Below the pieces are notes generated by a model. It did no database searches, was not told where the DNA came from, and saw only the letters and a list, made by a program, of their open reading frames with translations. The translations under genes and the position numbers were made by a program. DNA of 64,000 nucleotides from Candidatus Thorarchaeota archaeon (lineage in GTDB: Archaea; Asgardarchaeota; Thorarchaeia; Thorarchaeales; Thorarchaeaceae), in assembly GCA_048882325.1 (NCBI GenBank), contig JBHLRS010000007.1, positions 1 through 64,000 of the forward strand. The letters run 5' to 3'. This document shows positions 57,039 through 64,000 of this stretch, piece by piece. Each line of letters begins with the position of its first letter. The stretch's first letter is position 1.

Positions 57039-57761
57039 ATGTCAGAAGAAGGACCGAGTGATCTTGACAAAGTCTTCAAGGCACTAGGAAATGAAACTCG
57101 CAGAAGAATACTTCGCCTCCTAGCACAGGGTGAAAGATATCCCTATGAGTTAAGCAAAGTCCTAGGATTAACCCCACGGGGTGTATTCAAACACCTTGAA
57201 GCTCTTCAAGAAGCAGGACTCGTTGAGCGACAGCATGGCGAAAGCGAGGTAGGCCCAGACAGGGTTTACTACCGACTCAATGTGAGGTTTGGGCTTTCCA
57301 CCACAATCCTTCCAAATGCATTTGTTGTAAGACTAACTAGTCATGGGATAACAGGTCACCGACTCATAGTACCTCAGGGCTTTATCATCCCAGAAGCAAG
57401 ACCTGACGTAGCGGCGGTAAGAAAACTCCTGCGTGAGCTAGGGAAGGTCAACAGGCAACTTGAGAAACTCGAAGATGACAGGATGCGTTTTGCCTCACTA
57501 AGGAGTCAGATAATCAGCAGAATAGAGGCAGTAATGGAGCATGCTGAGTGGGATGAGGAGAGTCGTCAGAAAGTAAGGTCTCTAATTGATCCTATCCGGC
57601 AGCAAGTAGATGACACTGTAGAGGAACGCGAAGATGCTTGGGCTAGCACCGTCCAAGAAGCACTGAAACTTTTCGAGAATATGCTCACGGGGAAACCTCC
57701 GATTGCAAAGAAGAAAGAAGATTCTGACGACGATGTAGAGATAATACTGGATTCTGAGTGA
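57039..57761 (+). CDS. ArsR-like wHTH regulator with coiled coil, resembling archaeal heat-shock regulators Phr/HSR1
   Basis: ALGNETRRRILRLL, ELSKVLGL..GVFKHLEALQEAGLV, GPDRVYY, then P.AF and a long coiled coil. Confidence 0.85.
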   Translation: MSEEGPSDLDKVFKALGNETRRRILRLLAQGERYPYELSKVLGLTPRGVFKHLEALQEAGLVERQHGESEVGPDRVYYRLNVRFGLSTTILPNAFVVRLTSHGITGHRLIVPQGFIIPEARPDVAAVRKLLRELGKVNRQLEKLEDDRMRFASLRSQIISRIEAVMEHAEWDEESRQKVRSLIDPIRQQVDDTVEEREDAWASTVQEALKLFENMLTGKPPIAKKKEDSDDDVEIILDSE

Positions 57762-57762
57762 G

Positions 57763-58458
57763 CTACCAATTCCAGATTATTTTCCAGTCCGCTCTCTTTT
57801 GGCTTGACATACTCGGCACGTATTCAATCGGATTATATGGTAGTTCCACACCTTTTGCTTTCTTCACAGATAGATAGTGTTTTCCACGTGATGTGGTGAG
57901 AGTTATGATGCCTTGAGCGAGTGAATATAATTGGTTGATGGTTACTTCGTCAGCTGTTTCAGCATGTACGAGGTAGAACTCGTTTGACCCAATTTTGATG
58001 CTCTCCTCAACGCACTCTTTGAAGAACTGAACAACATCACGGGCTGAAAAGTCAATCAGAAGTGGTGTTAGACCTTCAAATGTGATTAGATTGGGCATCA
58101 GATCTTTTCTGAGACTTCTAAGTTGAATGTTAATTTCATGTAGATGTGGCGAACAGGTGTATTCTCCTAGAGTTTCTTGACCGTATCCAACCTCCATTAT
58201 CTTGAAGCCATTACCCTGCATCTGCGAAAGTTCAGTCATGAGAGAGCGATTTCTAGCCTCCGTGACTACTTCCAATGTAGAAAGACCAAGCTCAATGGCT
58301 CGTCTGATGAGAGTGAGCATAAAGAGGTCATAATGGCTGTCCTGAGAGGCCATAACGAGGAAGACATAACCTTTCGGAGGTCTAGTGAGTAGATTGTCCA
58401 CTATGCTGAACTTTGAACCGTTCTGGTCAATTGGTTCGCTACGCACTTTTTTACACAC
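57763..58458 (-). CDS. Inactive KaiC/RecA-superfamily single-domain protein
   Basis: Walker A degenerate (ASQDSHYD), Walker-B-like LITFEGL, LYSLAQGIITL, LSVKKAKG. Confidence 0.7.
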   Translation of the reverse strand: MCKKVRSEPIDQNGSKFSIVDNLLTRPPKGYVFLVMASQDSHYDLFMLTLIRRAIELGLSTLEVVTEARNRSLMTELSQMQGNGFKIMEVGYGQETLGEYTCSPHLHEINIQLRSLRKDLMPNLITFEGLTPLLIDFSARDVVQFFKECVEESIKIGSNEFYLVHAETADEVTINQLYSLAQGIITLTTSRGKHYLSVKKAKGVELPYNPIEYVPSMSSQKRADWKIIWNW

Positions 58459-58462
58459 TCAC

Positions 58463-58846
58463 TCATTGACTCATTCCAAGATGTTTTCTAATGGTTGCTA
58501 CGAGTGCCTTACCTGAAAATGGCTTGATGATATACTCGTCAGCACCCGCTTCTTCTCCTCGTTCTACATCGCTACTCAGTCCTTTAGCAGTGAACAATAG
58601 AATAGGAGTATCTTTGAAAGTAGCATTCTCTTTGAGTCTCTTGCAGACTTCAAAGCCATCGATAGTTGGAAGCATCACATCAAGAAGAACCAAATCAGGA
58701 ACCTCCTGATTTGCAAGTTCAAGTGCTTCCTCACCATCACTTGCTACCACCACCTCGAATCCGTGCTTCTCAAGGAATGTCTTCGCTAATTCAGTAGTCA
58801 TCTGTTCATCATCGACGACCAGTATTTTCTTGCTATTGCTGTTCAT
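58463..58846 (-). CDS. Stand-alone response-regulator receiver domain
   Basis: ILVVDDE, PDLVLLDVMLP..DG, LFTAK, GADEYIIKPF. Confidence 0.95.
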   Translation of the reverse strand: MNSNSKKILVVDDEQMTTELAKTFLEKHGFEVVVASDGEEALELANQEVPDLVLLDVMLPTIDGFEVCKRLKENATFKDTPILLFTAKGLSSDVERGEEAGADEYIIKPFSGKALVATIRKHLGMSQ

Positions 58847-58899
58847 GTTTATCACCGGAGGTAGGTGTGTTTTCGTAGTACTGATGAAGATCATATGAA

Positions 58900-58952
58900 A
58901 GGCGGTTCCTGGTGTAAAAAAGATGAGACTTCTTCAGCGACCCGGAACGCCT
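58900..58952 (-). other. Long imperfect stem-loop between the GvpD-like gene and the receiver gene
   Basis: Minus strand AGGCGTTCCGGGT..TGAAGAAG-TCTCAT-CTTTTTTA..ACCAGGAACCGCCT. Confidence 0.45.
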
Positions 58953-58980
58953 GTTATCTTGTGACTTCATCATTTTATCC

Positions 58981-60363
58981 TCATACAATTGGTACTAAAT
59001 CATAATCCAGAAAGCCCTTAGATAGCAAGGGCCTTACTGCAAGGTAGTTTGTACGTGGATTTACACCACATACACTTAGCACTCCACTCAATTCCTGAAC
59101 ACGAAGATGTACACTGTATGCGATTGACCCACTTTTCAATGCCTGCTGCTGTCCAAGAATACTCACAGTTGCCCGGTTTGTCGCTGGCAGGGATGCTGTT
59201 ATTTCAGCCATCATACCTTTGACATCAGTGACACCATACTTGTTTTCAAGAGTATCAAGGGAGAATAACTCAGTTGCTTCAGCGTCAAATTTGCGCTCGA
59301 GCTGTGTAGCCTCATATCTAATCTCTTGGAGCGTCTTCCATGGATCGTCATTTATGGTCCGTACATTTTCTAGCTGTCCTAGAGCATGTCGCCCAAAGAA
59401 AATGACTTGATCCTCGACAAGCTGCTGTTCAACAAAATGACTCAACCCTTGGGAAAATTGATCCGGAGACCATCCTTCTGGGAGAAGTATAACCGCAGGC
59501 CGACCAAGTTGAAGGTGGTTCGATAGAAATGGGATGTAGATTGTTTCAAGATAAGGCGCTGCTAGATTCTCAACCTCTATGAGGCTCAATACACCTTTTT
59601 GAAAACCTCCCCCAATTATTCCATCTAAGCTTTTATTCCCAGTTGATATTCTATCAGGTGAAGGATCTTGAATTGGTTCTCTCTCCACTGTGATTGGTGG
59701 GAACTGATGCACATGCCAGGGTACGTATGTGAATCTACCGTTGTTTAGTGTGAAGAGGAAAGTGTCTTGTTTCAGTGGTAGTGAGCGCATCTTCTCAATA
59801 GTCATTTGTCGATACATTCTCTGATCTTCACGTAGTTTCTTCAGGCGGATGATTGCATCAGCTGAGTGGTGCAGAGGGTGTTGATATTTCTCTTCCCAGT
59901 CACCTTCTGTTACAAGTACTAACTTTTTACCCTCGTTTCGGGCTGCGTAAATCAACGACTGTTGAACTTCATATCTTTTGGCTTCATCAATAGGCATCAT
60001 GAAGTCGGTCCAAGAGTCGATAATTACCACGTTGTGTGATTCTGATACAGACTGCACACCGAGTAATTGCTTCAATTGCTCATGCAAAGGAACTTCATGC
60101 AAAGAACTCTCTTTCAGAGACCTCCAGTAATGAGAAACGAAATACCGCTTAGACCAATTAGGTTCCATAGATAGGCCCTTTTCCGTTACAGATGTTGATT
60201 CAGCGTTAGACATTATGAGTAAAGATTCGTTAAATTCTCGAAAGACCTCATGTACAAACAAAGTCTTGCCTGTTCCAGGCTTTCCTGTCACTACAATAAT
60301 ATAGCCAGGTGCTGAGTCTAATGCATCCCTAATACTAGGCGGAATCGAGCCTTCACTGCTCAT
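58981..60363 (-). CDS. GvpD/KaiC-like two-domain ATPase (N-domain intact, C-domain inactive)
   Basis: IPPSI..GKPGTGKT, VVIIDSW, LVTE, ADAIIRL, IEKMRS; second domain ISTGNKSLDGIIGGGF lacks Walker A. Confidence 0.85.
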   Translation of the reverse strand: MSSEGSIPPSIRDALDSAPGYIIVVTGKPGTGKTLFVHEVFREFNESLLIMSNAESTSVTEKGLSMEPNWSKRYFVSHYWRSLKESSLHEVPLHEQLKQLLGVQSVSESHNVVIIDSWTDFMMPIDEAKRYEVQQSLIYAARNEGKKLVLVTEGDWEEKYQHPLHHSADAIIRLKKLREDQRMYRQMTIEKMRSLPLKQDTFLFTLNNGRFTYVPWHVHQFPPITVEREPIQDPSPDRISTGNKSLDGIIGGGFQKGVLSLIEVENLAAPYLETIYIPFLSNHLQLGRPAVILLPEGWSPDQFSQGLSHFVEQQLVEDQVIFFGRHALGQLENVRTINDDPWKTLQEIRYEATQLERKFDAEATELFSLDTLENKYGVTDVKGMMAEITASLPATNRATVSILGQQQALKSGSIAYSVHLRVQELSGVLSVCGVNPRTNYLAVRPLLSKGFLDYDLVPIV

Positions 60364-60474
60364 TTCTGATTGCCCCTTGCTTGCGCAAATGGAGTTCACT
60401 TGTTTTGAAATATAAGGATATGTGGCTCATTTATTCTAATCACTCTTGTGATAATTCAAGAGCAACTCGAGGGT

Positions 60475-62070
60475 TTACTCTTCAAGCTTTGAAATGAAGT
60501 CCTTGAAATACGGGCATAAACCCCCCATCCAATAGAGGTTTCCAAAGCACTCTTTTCGAAGTCCCAATCGCTCAACTCTGCACTCGAAGCTCTTCTCTCC
60601 ATCAAAGAAAACGCAGAGGTCACTATCTGACTTCGGGTCATCAAGGACCATTCTTCTTACTTCTTTCATTCTATTAAGTTCAGGAGAGTCTGACCATTCC
60701 TTGCTAGGACCCAGTTGTTTGCGAATGTGTGCTAGAAGTTTTTCATCGGGAGTCCTACCATCAGCCCAAAGTGTGACTAACTCACTGACATCTGCATTGA
60801 AACCATAGAGGAGATGATCAATATCTACTGAAACTTCTTTTGCTCTCCTGTATGCTGCTATTGCATCGTCATATCTCTGTAAAATGTAGTTTGCATCGCC
60901 TGCAAGAAACAGTGTGAGAGTCAATGTTGACCTCATTCCTGCTCCTTCTGCAAGTTGGGTAGCTTCATCGTAGAGCCTAATTGCTTCTTCAGTGTCACCT
61001 TTGCGAAGAGCAACATCACCAAGATTGACTGTGGCAGTGGCTATACCTCGCATGTATTCAGCTTCTTGACTGATTTCCAAAGCCCGTCGATTGTAAGTTT
61101 CCATCTGAGATATTTGGTCGAGGGCTCTGTCAATCTCCCCGACATTGATGAGCGTTGCGGCAAGTCCGACTTGATTGTTGAGTTGCTGTTGAATAATAAG
61201 CAATTCCTCGAACTGGTCTCGTGCCTCTTGGAGTCTACCCATGTTGAGGTGGATGACGCCTCGAAGTCGGCGGGCATCTGCAACACCTTGAAGATAACCC
61301 ATCCGCTCATAAGTCCGGAGAGCACTTGTTACTAGACTCAGAGCACGATCATGTTCGTAAAATTCCTCAAGTGCACGACCCCGATAAAATTTGATGTCTG
61401 TCAAAGCCAACTGATGATCAAGATGAGTAGCAGTATCCTGAGCTGAATCAAGCCTAATCAAAGCCTCCTCTCGAGATTCACCTGAAACCGAGATGAATGC
61501 AAGGATAATCCTCGGTCGTAGAAGAGCAGCTTGGACCATGTTACGGATGTTTGTATCCTTTGCAGTAGCTTGAGTGACTTTCTCAATGCTTTCAGACGCC
61601 ACCTCCCTAGCGTGATCTGTGTAGCCTAAATCAATCAGAACAGATGCTAATTGACCAGAAAGCTCTGCAAATGCAATGTAGTCTCTTGACTGCCAAGTCT
61701 GATTTGTTATGTTTCGGAGATTGTTCAACCAACGAGGATCAAGACTTTGTCTACAATATGCTGCAGCTGCATAACCCCTCGCAGTTAGGTTTGATTGGTC
61801 TTTAGCAAGGATCTGGTTGTATCCATACATACCCCTGAGAAAACTTGCTTTCGCACACATCGCGAGAAATGATGGAGTTCTATTCTTCCATTCACCACTT
61901 CCAACATATTCAATCAAAACATCCGTAAAGAGCATGAAACGGTCTTTGGTGGAACGAGATTGCATTCTGAGTCGATTACGTAGTTCATCAACCTCAGTAT
62001 CCTCTAATCCTGGTGTGTACATCATGAACTCTGGGATTACTGGATCGTCTTGCACTTTCTCATTCACCAT
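60475..62070 (-). CDS. TPR-repeat protein with a C-terminal four-Cys motif
   Basis: TPR-type repeats (G.A....G.I....G....A....E.AL.I); C-x10-C-x10-C-x10-C tail. Confidence 0.88.
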   Translation of the reverse strand: MVNEKVQDDPVIPEFMMYTPGLEDTEVDELRNRLRMQSRSTKDRFMLFTDVLIEYVGSGEWKNRTPSFLAMCAKASFLRGMYGYNQILAKDQSNLTARGYAAAAYCRQSLDPRWLNNLRNITNQTWQSRDYIAFAELSGQLASVLIDLGYTDHAREVASESIEKVTQATAKDTNIRNMVQAALLRPRIILAFISVSGESREEALIRLDSAQDTATHLDHQLALTDIKFYRGRALEEFYEHDRALSLVTSALRTYERMGYLQGVADARRLRGVIHLNMGRLQEARDQFEELLIIQQQLNNQVGLAATLINVGEIDRALDQISQMETYNRRALEISQEAEYMRGIATATVNLGDVALRKGDTEEAIRLYDEATQLAEGAGMRSTLTLTLFLAGDANYILQRYDDAIAAYRRAKEVSVDIDHLLYGFNADVSELVTLWADGRTPDEKLLAHIRKQLGPSKEWSDSPELNRMKEVRRMVLDDPKSDSDLCVFFDGEKSFECRVERLGLRKECFGNLYWMGGLCPYFKDFISKLEE

Positions 62071-62266
62071 TGTCTGGTGAGCCTGCTAGTTTCTGCTCCT
62101 CTATCGCTTCGCTGTCTATGGCTATCAAAAGGCTTCTAGTGGTTTTCTCCGCGAAGATGTGTGAAAGCAGAAATATAGGTTTCGAGGATGTATAGCGAGA
62201 ATATAATCGGGCGGTTCTTTCTTAAAAGTTAAAACGGGCAGTGGTATGAAATGGCTTGTGGTTCGC

Positions 62267-63022
62267 ATGCCTAAGACCCGAGTTAGTACAGGTGTCCCTG
62301 GTCTTGACGAGCTTCTAGAAGGGGGCTATGTTCAAGGAAGATCAACACTCCTAGCAGGAGGTCCAGGTACAGGAAAAAGTATCCTTACGTGGCATTTTCT
62401 GTTTGATGGTGTTGAGAAAGGCGAGAGTGGTTTATTGGTGTCCCTCGACCAGACAGCAGATATGATCGTTGAGGATATGTCTGATTTTGGATGGAACGCG
62501 AAGAAAAGGCTTGAATCTGGATCTTTAACTATACTTAGCGGCTCGCTTAATCTGGTTCCAACAGAGAAAAGCTACGAATATGTGATTGACTTTCATCATC
62601 CACTACTACGAGAGCAACCATTTACAGTTCCTAGATTAGCTGAACTCGTCCGAAAGAAAGCAGGAGAGGTAAACGCAAAAAGGATTGTTATTGATGGGTT
62701 GGGACCCCTACTAGAACTAGCTGGTAATCGTTCTGAGATACGTCAACTGGTGTATGGTTTCATCCGTGAGATTGTCGATTGGGAATCGACGATTATTCTG
62801 ACACATGAACTGAAAGCCAGTGAAACTGCCCAAAATGATGAGATGCCTTTCTTCATTTGCGATGGAGTTGTTGTTCTCAAAATGCTCTATACTGCAGGAG
62901 ATTATGTGCGAACGATTCGAGTAGTAAAAATGAGGGGTGCAAATCATGTCATGCGCCCGATTATGTTCAAGATTGGTCCAAATGGCATAGTAGCCTTCCC
63001 AGATGCACGTCTACCCGAATAG
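62267..63022 (+). CDS. KaiC-like (RAD55/RecA superfamily) single-domain ATPase
   Basis: RVSTGVPGLDELLEGG, GGPGTGKS, RIVIDG, CDGVVVL, RTIRVVKMRG. Confidence 0.92.
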   Translation: MPKTRVSTGVPGLDELLEGGYVQGRSTLLAGGPGTGKSILTWHFLFDGVEKGESGLLVSLDQTADMIVEDMSDFGWNAKKRLESGSLTILSGSLNLVPTEKSYEYVIDFHHPLLREQPFTVPRLAELVRKKAGEVNAKRIVIDGLGPLLELAGNRSEIRQLVYGFIREIVDWESTIILTHELKASETAQNDEMPFFICDGVVVLKMLYTAGDYVRTIRVVKMRGANHVMRPIMFKIGPNGIVAFPDARLPE

Positions 63023-63029
63023 ACTATGA

Positions 63030-63407
63030 TCAGTAAACTGGTTGCACCTTTCTCACTGTGTCAGTCATGTCATACATGCTGAATGGTTTTTGAAGAAACG
63101 CCCTAGCTCCCACAGCAAGGACAGTTTCACCCACACCATCTATCGGGTCTGATATTACCACTATAGCAATGATGGGGTCAATGTCAAGAATATCCTCTAT
63201 CAATCGCACTAGGTCCTTCTGGTCCATGTTGAAGTCGATAAGAACGACAGCTGGATTTTGATATTGACTCATGACTAACAGAGTCTGAGCGTCATCCGCC
63301 TCACCAATAACATCGAAACCTGCATCTTCAAGTGCCATTTTCAGAAGAACCCTGAGAAGCGGAACCTCCCCTGCAACTATAATACCAGAATGAGGAACTT
63401 CTGTCAG
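63030..63407 (-). CDS. Atypical stand-alone receiver domain; probable non-canonical start (CTG at 63407)
   Basis: GFDVIGEA, PAVVLIDFNM, VISD, GARAFLQKPF. The beta1 strand GIIVAGE lies upstream of the first ATG (63338). Confidence 0.75.
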   Translation of the reverse strand: MTEVPHSGIIVAGEVPLLRVLLKMALEDAGFDVIGEADDAQTLLVMSQYQNPAVVLIDFNMDQKDLVRLIEDILDIDPIIAIVVISDPIDGVGETVLAVGARAFLQKPFSMYDMTDTVRKVQPVY

Positions 63408-63445
63408 GTTAGTCCTGCCCCCTAGGATTTGATATTAAGACAGCT

Positions 63446-63811
63446 TCAGTCAGACACAGCACTCTCTACAAGGTCTAGCATATGACGTATTGTCACAGGC
63501 TTTAAACCAAAACTTGCAGCACCATTTCCCATTGCCTGCTCCCTCACGTTTGCATCAGCACTGATGAAAACTATCTTGGCCTTGGGATCAATATCAAGTA
63601 TCTCTTTCATGGTCTGCATGCCATCTTTGTTAGGCATTCTATGGTCTAGAATAATGACCTCAGGTTTAGGATCCAGAGCAACGAACTTGTCAACTGCTTC
63701 TGCGCCATCGTAGGCATCAGCCACAACCTCATGCCCCTTGATGCTGAAGACATCTTTGTAGAGCCTGTGAAGAATCGCCTCATCATCTACTATGAAGATT
63801 GTGACCATATG
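63446..63811 (-). CDS. Stand-alone response-regulator receiver domain (CheY-like)
   Basis: IFIVDDE, PEVIILDHRMPNKDG, FISAD, GLKP. Confidence 0.94.
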   Translation of the reverse strand, partial: HMVTIFIVDDEAILHRLYKDVFSIKGHEVVADAYDGAEAVDKFVALDPKPEVIILDHRMPNKDGMQTMKEILDIDPKAKIVFISADANVREQAMGNGAASFGLKPVTIRHMLDLVESAVSD

Positions 63812-64000
63812 CTTCTTCCAACCTTGGAATACTGTCATGCTCAGAACACAGAGAATGTCAATAAACGTTGGTTAGACGGCTATTGGTGTGCGACACTACT
63901 CTCTGTCCCTTACGACTGAGTCTTGTACATGTCGATAACAAAACTTGAGATATAAATGATATGTGACTATGTATTATCTAACAAATCCTATTGCTGGTAA

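Follow-up and report, generated by a model that had tools for sequence, protein, structure and literature searches.

Archaeal KaiC-like ATPases have been proposed as central signaling hubs, and Makarova, Galperin and Koonin reportedly described "signal transduction hub" neighborhoods of these proteins in 2017. To our knowledge, almost nothing is known about the partners with which they assemble. Here, we describe a cluster of seven genes from a Thorarchaeota archaeon, a member of the Asgard archaea, the archaeal group closest to eukaryotes. The cluster encodes three KaiC-like proteins, three stand-alone receivers (REC1, REC2, and REC3), and one tetratricopeptide repeat (TPR) protein. It was found in a window of 64,000 nucleotides, positions 1 to 64,000 of a 124-kb contig (JBHLRS010000007.1), and the source metagenome-assembled genome (MAG) is 3.6 Mb in size and 93% complete. 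All seven genes named in an initial annotation of this DNA were confirmed by open reading frame (ORF) and Pfam analysis, and motif alignment found the motifs reported for them.

Coupling between receivers and KaiC domains is already known in the form of fusions. Passages of PMC5847659 list receivers fused to active or inactivated KaiC domains, namely iKaiC-REC of the Methanosarcinaceae, REC-DUF835, and MEDS-REC, and document TPR-REC fusions as well. The Thorarchaeota locus resembles the archaeal hub and fusion systems in three ways: receivers are coupled to both active and inactivated KaiC domains, signaling is expected to proceed through protein-protein contacts rather than DNA-binding response regulators, and the distribution is narrow and lineage-specific. 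Unlike the fusions, it consists of separate genes, with three KaiC-like proteins of graded degeneracy next to three receivers and a TPR protein carrying four cysteines; its KaiC layer is optional and lost as a block, and the cluster is confined to one family. The cluster is not described in passages of the literature on Thorarchaeota and KaiC, and it is this family-specific arrangement of separate genes with an optional trio that is new. The KaiABC clock, with its pseudo-receivers (the KaiA N-domain and CikA) and SasA/RpaA output, also has features in common with the locus: KaiC-fold ATPases with a two-domain layout, seen here in a protein of 472 amino acids (aa), and a receiver fold that lacks the acidic pocket. 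In contrast to the clock, the locus has neither KaiA nor KaiB, the catalytic E-E pair is replaced, no Ser/Thr phosphosites are present, and two of the four KaiC-like domains have no P-loop.

We read the locus, with a probability of roughly 0.6, as a family-specific receiver-TPR signaling unit that is fed by unlinked kinases and joined by an obligate assembly of three KaiC-like proteins, which REC1 serves. The TPR protein was found in 70 of the 85 genomes of one GTDB family, covering all 16 genera, and its N-terminal domain was present in 68 of those 85 genomes and in none of the 314 other genomes of the phylum. These counts confine the module to one Thorarchaeota family, and it is not the conserved Asgard module that had been proposed from the sequence. 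Relatives of the two-domain KaiC-like protein occur in other Asgard families at about 25% identity, with no receivers and no synteny. The inactive KaiC-like protein of 231 aa was found in only 37 of the 85 family genomes.

Wherever all seven genes were present, their order was identical (29 loci from 12 genera), and this held down to 39-47% protein identity. The order was also kept in 13 genomes of the organism's own genus (58-93% identity) and in 24 public Thorarchaeota contigs, while the outer flanks of the cluster were inserted into, moved, or lost among relatives. The comparison of synteny across Thorarchaeota had been set beforehand as a check on the initial annotation, and the conserved order between variable flanks supports its treatment of these genes as a real module. 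Neighboring genes, those for a DUF389 protein, orf105, and an ArsR-type regulator, were often syntenic too, as would be seen if the arrangement were merely gene order inherited among closely related MAGs and carried no functional meaning. We disfavor this explanation as very improbable, since the seven-gene order holds at 39-47% identity while the flanks change, and since genes that are not adjacent have repeatedly been lost together.

The two layers became apparent when each gene was scored by tblastn in 64 fetched loci. Genomes that seemed to be without the module kept the locus, with the ArsR, REC1, TPR, REC2, and REC3 genes in place and the KaiC-like trio missing, so that three non-adjacent slots were vacated. 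The trio was intact in 21 fully covered loci, with which eight partial contigs agreed, and none of its genes was intact in 33 loci. A single frameshift in one MAG was the sole mixed state among the 64 loci. Short or stop-containing KaiC-like remnants were seen in five of the trio-less loci (G017, G068, G008, G063, and G094), and at least these five transitions were therefore losses. Furthermore, REC1 persisted between two emptied slots in 12 loci, indicating that the trio losses were separate deletions.

Trio presence and absence mapped onto the maximum-likelihood tree of the TPR protein with 13 changes, compared to a mean of 21 when the states were shuffled. Well-supported branches forced at least 10 of 14 changes, a count made with one locus labeled otherwise, for which the corrected total is 13. 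In nine phylogenetically independent contrasts on supported branches, the trio genes changed together (in 9.0, 8.5, and 8.2 of the nine) and never in opposite directions, giving sign-test p values of 0.004-0.008. A set that is all or none although its members leave from separate slots indicates that the three KaiC-like proteins are interdependent and most likely form one unit. The simplest explanation of the co-loss, and the most likely one, is that the trio makes up a hetero-oligomeric KaiC/RecA-type assembly. RecA-fold hetero-oligomers in which some subunits lack catalysis are found among the Rad51/RadA paralogs (Rad55-Rad57 and the RAD51 paralogs) and in Elongator Elp4-6. PAXNEB/Elp4 and RAD51D were among the weak matches; however, the locus has no DNA-repair or tRNA-modification context, and the likeness is one of fold and principle. 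In effect, the same natural deletion experiment has been repeated about a dozen times, with the trio kept or discarded as a set while the interleaved receivers and the TPR protein stay.

Of the receivers, REC1 is the one that follows the trio. It was missing from none of the 26 trio-bearing loci and was missing or broken in 18 of the 30 trio-less loci. The 231-aa gene starts 4 nucleotides past the REC1 stop codon, and the two genes overlap in some orthologs. These observations bear on a different explanation, in which the trio is a self-contained accessory system, for example a stress-related or defense-like one, that is lodged in the locus and whose members depend on each other without communicating with the receivers or the TPR protein. 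A turnover of about 13 gains or losses inside a single family is typical of accessory or defense genes, and the TPR protein, REC2, and REC3 remain intact where the trio is absent. However, in every one of the 12 trio-bearing genera the genes fill the same three interleaved positions, and the arrangement is therefore old and has been kept. No locus with the trio lacks REC1, REC1 is often lost once the trio has gone, and its gene is 4 nucleotides from the 231-aa gene or overlaps it. Fusions of receivers to inactive KaiC domains exist elsewhere, and PADLOC returned only generic domain matches. An accessory system with no link to the receivers is therefore rather unlikely. A known anti-phage defense system was rejected, as the PADLOC matches were to generic receiver, P-loop, and TPR domains.

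The lack of a linked kinase was conserved. No HATPase_c domain was found in the window, and the nearest one on the contig is at 117.7 kb, 54 kb away. The 13 kb beyond the window contained nothing kinase-like and encodes ferredoxin-type, DUF4760, geranylgeranyl-reductase-like, URO-D-like, and HEAT proteins. Among about 64 related loci, a kinase-like gene was within the fetched flanks in five, at inconsistent places. The genome as a whole had 23 HATPase_c matches (nine with HisKA), corresponding to about 20 kinase-type genes, compared to only 10 receiver domains. Three of these receivers are at this locus, and there are only two further small receiver ORFs. Small stand-alone ORFs account for only five of the 10 receiver domains, and at least four share an open frame with a kinase-type domain. 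Since no kinase is consistently linked and kinases are plentiful in the genome, being "kinase-less" is a conserved local property and not one of the organism. The kinase-less hub of the initial annotation thus stands for the locus and falls for the genome. Its proposed search past 64 kb for histidine kinase genes gave none within 54 kb on the contig. CheW had no match in the 93%-complete genome, with positive controls, and a reading of the receivers as chemotaxis CheY proteins was rejected.

The missing kinase could also be explained if a KaiC-like subunit were itself the phosphodonor, or an autokinase, that charges the receivers. In favor of this, the 64 loci share no kinase at a consistent place near the cluster, KaiC is a known autokinase, and the 472-aa protein commonly has a His at the third residue ahead of the conserved Asp. 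On the other hand, REC3, and often REC1, keep all their acceptor residues in the 33 KaiC-less loci, so the phosphodonor of REC3 and REC1 must lie elsewhere. The genome encodes about twice as many kinases as receivers, the single-domain KaiC-like protein has neither the Ser/Thr phosphosite nor the E-E pair, and the His-His pair is not conserved, the first His being variable and the second not invariant. We regard such a kinase-independent relay as very unlikely. A narrower version appears equally doubtful, in which the trio acts as a non-canonical phosphodonor or a nucleotide-driven switch that charges or gates REC1, as a histidine-kinase-free phosphorelay added to an older receiver-TPR core. 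The co-loss and the lack of a linked kinase allow this version, but the acceptor residues kept in trio-less genomes argue against the trio as the sole input.

The three receivers differ in their residues. REC1 (58463-58846, minus strand, within an ORF at 58463-58894) is a canonical receiver (PF00072, 4e-31) with an ortholog-supported start at 58846, and its DD, D, T, and K residues are conserved. REC3 (63446-63808, minus strand, ORF 63446-63838) is also canonical (PF00072, 6e-19), with DD, D, S, and K nearly invariant in 55-57 orthologs at 65-97% identity. The full phospho-acceptor set of these two receivers is conserved in 41-57 orthologs. The receivers were present as initially annotated, with the REC3 start moved from 63811 to 63808, the position that is supported by comparison. 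REC2 (63030-63431, minus strand) is different: A/G-G/C stands where DD would be expected in each of the 56 orthologs, although the acceptor Asp and the Lys are retained. Judged by these residues, REC2 is an atypical receiver or pseudo-receiver that lacks the acidic pair. It belongs to the invariant core, as does REC3.

The start of REC2 is unusual. From the first ATG (63030-63338) the PF00072 match is 1.8e-10, and the open frame covers profile positions 1-110. The in-frame residues IIVAGE upstream of that ATG are conserved in orthologs, and this genome has no ATG, GTG, or TTG before the conserved first strand (63339-63431, minus strand). At 63407 there is a CTG with a G-rich stretch in front of it. 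These features suggest that REC2 uses a non-canonical start or that the sequence contains an error.

The TPR protein (60475-62070, minus strand, 531 aa), the third member of the invariant core, has TPR Pfam matches at residues 230-415. Its AlphaFold2 model, with a predicted local distance difference test (pLDDT) score of 90, forms an all-helical solenoid over residues 13 to about 440 and then a small Cys module. The C-terminal module has the pattern C-x10-C-x10-C-x10-C, and C486, C497, C508, and C519 were invariant in 17 orthologs. The pairing of a TPR solenoid with single-domain receivers is reminiscent of Rap/Spo0F of Bacillus, and Rap phosphatases were among the fold matches of the model, at ranks 40 and 50. 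However, these matches reflect generic TPR similarity, and the phosphatase domain at the N terminus of Rap was not identified, making this an analogy only. Generic TPR scaffolds were all that the fold search of the model gave, with no enzymatic domain among them.

The three KaiC-like proteins cover a range of catalytic states, as had been noticed initially. The single-domain KaiC-like ATPase (62267-63022, plus strand) is optional, and its gene is divergent from the TPR gene and convergent on those of REC2 and REC3. Its ORF extends over 62246-63022, with the supported start at 62267. The PF06745 match is strong (1.7e-51; 175 bits compared to a cut-off of 26.6), and matches to KaiC in the PDB reach 1e-44. 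Walker A (GGPGTGK[ST]) was found in all 26 orthologs and the Walker B Asp in all 27. In the alignment to solved KaiC, SLDQ falls on the catalytic FEE, and FF falls on S431/T432. The catalytic pair is D-Q in 22 of 26 orthologs, D-E in the other four, and E-E in none, and the KaiC phosphosite positions are F/Y-F across 26-28 orthologs. This alignment bears out the intact Walker A, the DQ in place of EE, and the missing Ser/Thr phosphosite that had been read from the letters. Of the marks of a clock-type KaiC, the E-E pair, Ser/Thr phosphosites, and an adjacent kaiB were all lacking at this locus.

Neither KaiA nor KaiB had been seen in the window, and none was found in the locus. The sole KaiB-like match in the genome was a 114-aa ORF on another contig, C32, that scored 27.3 bits, just above the cut-off. 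It stands beside two canonical KaiC paralogs (C32:13936-15638; PF06745, 107 and 239 bits), and this cluster may be a KaiBC-type system unrelated to the receiver-TPR locus.

The two-domain protein of 472 aa (58981-60363, minus strand; ORF 58981-60399, with an ortholog-supported start at 60363) is an intact-plus-dead fusion, as first described. Its Pfam matches are confined to the N-terminal half (KaiC, 1.3e-10; GvpD_P-loop, 3.3e-8), where Walker A, a single Glu, and Walker B are all kept. The C-terminal half opens with the KaiC domain-opening motif, has VENLAAPYLE in place of the P-loop, and was aligned by hhalign to the single-domain KaiC with a probability of 85%. The profile of the whole protein matches full-length KaiC, from CI through the opening motif of CII, and the motifs are kept across genera. 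The phosphosite positions are variable and mostly His. A "KaiC-fold histidine autokinase" built on the His-His pair was considered and rejected, because the first position is variable, and the second, although often His, is not invariant. The N-terminal half also matches GvpD (PF07088, 34.1 bits compared to a cut-off of 24), the haloarchaeal gas-vesicle repressor. However, KaiC scores higher on the same region (41.5 bits), and nothing Gvp-like was found among the neighboring proteins covered by general domain scans. PF00741 (gas vesicle) had no match in the genome, but the control genomes gave none either. The GvpD label reflects a resemblance of the P-loop domain only.

The 231-aa protein (57763-58458, minus strand), the optional gene that adjoins REC1, had no Pfam match. 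It carries ASQDSHYD at the P-loop position, conserved family-wide. One AlphaFold2 model had a mean pLDDT of 72 and a predicted template-modeling (pTM) score of 0.74, and the other four models scored poorly. The top Foldseek matches of this model were KaiC CI, PH0284, PH0186, and FlaH (E 1e-9 to 1e-7; template-modeling scores 0.59-0.67). The protein thus appears to have a KaiC/RecA fold without a P-loop, in agreement with the fully degenerate KaiC-like domain of the initial annotation. Only 22 representatives of this very small family were found in 1.84 billion proteins. A distant homolog scored 26.0 bits with PF06745, just below the 26.6 cut-off, and also matched DUF835, which is listed as an inactivated KaiC in passages of Galperin et al. 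(PMC5847659). The hhalign comparisons (1.4% and 6.9%) did not support the idea that the two-domain protein has a split counterpart in the single-domain KaiC plus the 231-aa protein. The only homolog outside the family (L063:8759-10486, genome G025 of a sister family) is 30% identical and has an unrelated context, where it lies tail to tail, 21 bp away, with a radical-SAM protein whose C-terminal domain is a winged helix (HVO_A0114-like).

In the mechanism that we propose for the favored two-layer reading, histidine kinases encoded elsewhere would phosphorylate REC3 and REC1. The core would consist of REC3 as a normal phospho-acceptor, REC2 without the metal-binding acidic pair, and the TPR protein with its four-Cys module as a docking platform. 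The optional layer would be the three KaiC-like proteins, none of which would function without the other two; most likely, they would form one hetero-oligomeric RecA/KaiC-type assembly. In this assembly, the N-terminal half of the 472-aa protein would be the domain that probably hydrolyzes ATP. The single-domain KaiC-like protein would bind ATP and, with D-Q in place of E-E, would be crippled for hydrolysis, and two domains, the C-terminal half of the 472-aa protein and the 231-aa protein, would be dead. REC1, translationally coupled to the dead 231-aa subunit, would act as the assembly's own receiver, and the adjacent ArsR-type regulator is a candidate for the output. Such a scheme suggests a way in which signals from kinases that outnumber the receivers about two to one could be funneled into a small set of stand-alone receivers. 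The pattern of the trio predicts a hetero-oligomeric KaiC-like complex with its own receiver, which is testable, and the family offers matched natural genomes with and without the trio for comparison.

Several points weigh against this reading. The TPR protein, REC2, and REC3 are intact in 33 loci without any KaiC-like gene, and are therefore independent of the KaiC-like proteins, so that the trio may work downstream of the receivers or alongside them instead of with them. For the same reason, the initial annotation's picture of hetero-oligomeric KaiC-like proteins acting with receivers on a TPR scaffold is only partly upheld. The all-or-none trio is what a hetero-oligomer predicts, but a single unit is not supported, given that the core persists without the trio and that only REC1 tracks it. 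With phylogenetic control, the link between REC1 and the trio did not rise above a trend (p about 0.125), and what co-loss proves is interdependence, which need not mean a physical complex. Because every genome is a MAG, some absences or frameshifts could be assembly artifacts. The tree was built from a single gene inside the locus (TPR) by a quick maximum-likelihood search, and its long branches are uncertain. Finally, the hhalign probabilities of the 231-aa protein were weak (1.4% against the single-domain KaiC and 6.9% against the N-terminal half of the 472-aa family), and its predicted fold rests on a model of moderate confidence.

The ArsR-type winged-helix regulator (57039-57761, plus strand; HTH_5, 1e-11) has a coiled-coil tail and is convergent on the cluster. 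Its gene adjoins the cluster in most loci and was missing from the nine loci of genus g25. In genus g29 (L094-L096), the ArsR-REC1 pair is relocated to the far side of REC3-REC2-TPR and is still adjacent, a hint that REC1 and the regulator are connected. One genus has an insert of about 2 kb between REC1 and the two-domain KaiC-like gene (L065:4094-6176, genome G048). Genome G002, which has 7% contamination, contained two complete copies of the locus, on C166 (L026) and C150 (L028), that are about 57% identical. The first copy has a frameshifted single-domain KaiC, and the second groups with another genus on the TPR tree; the two copies probably reflect a mixed bin or transfer. Directly after REC3, an AT-rich stretch of about 1.07 kb (63839-64000 and on to about 64903 of the contig) has no ORF of at least 80 aa and contains repeated TTTCGAAAAA-type boxes.

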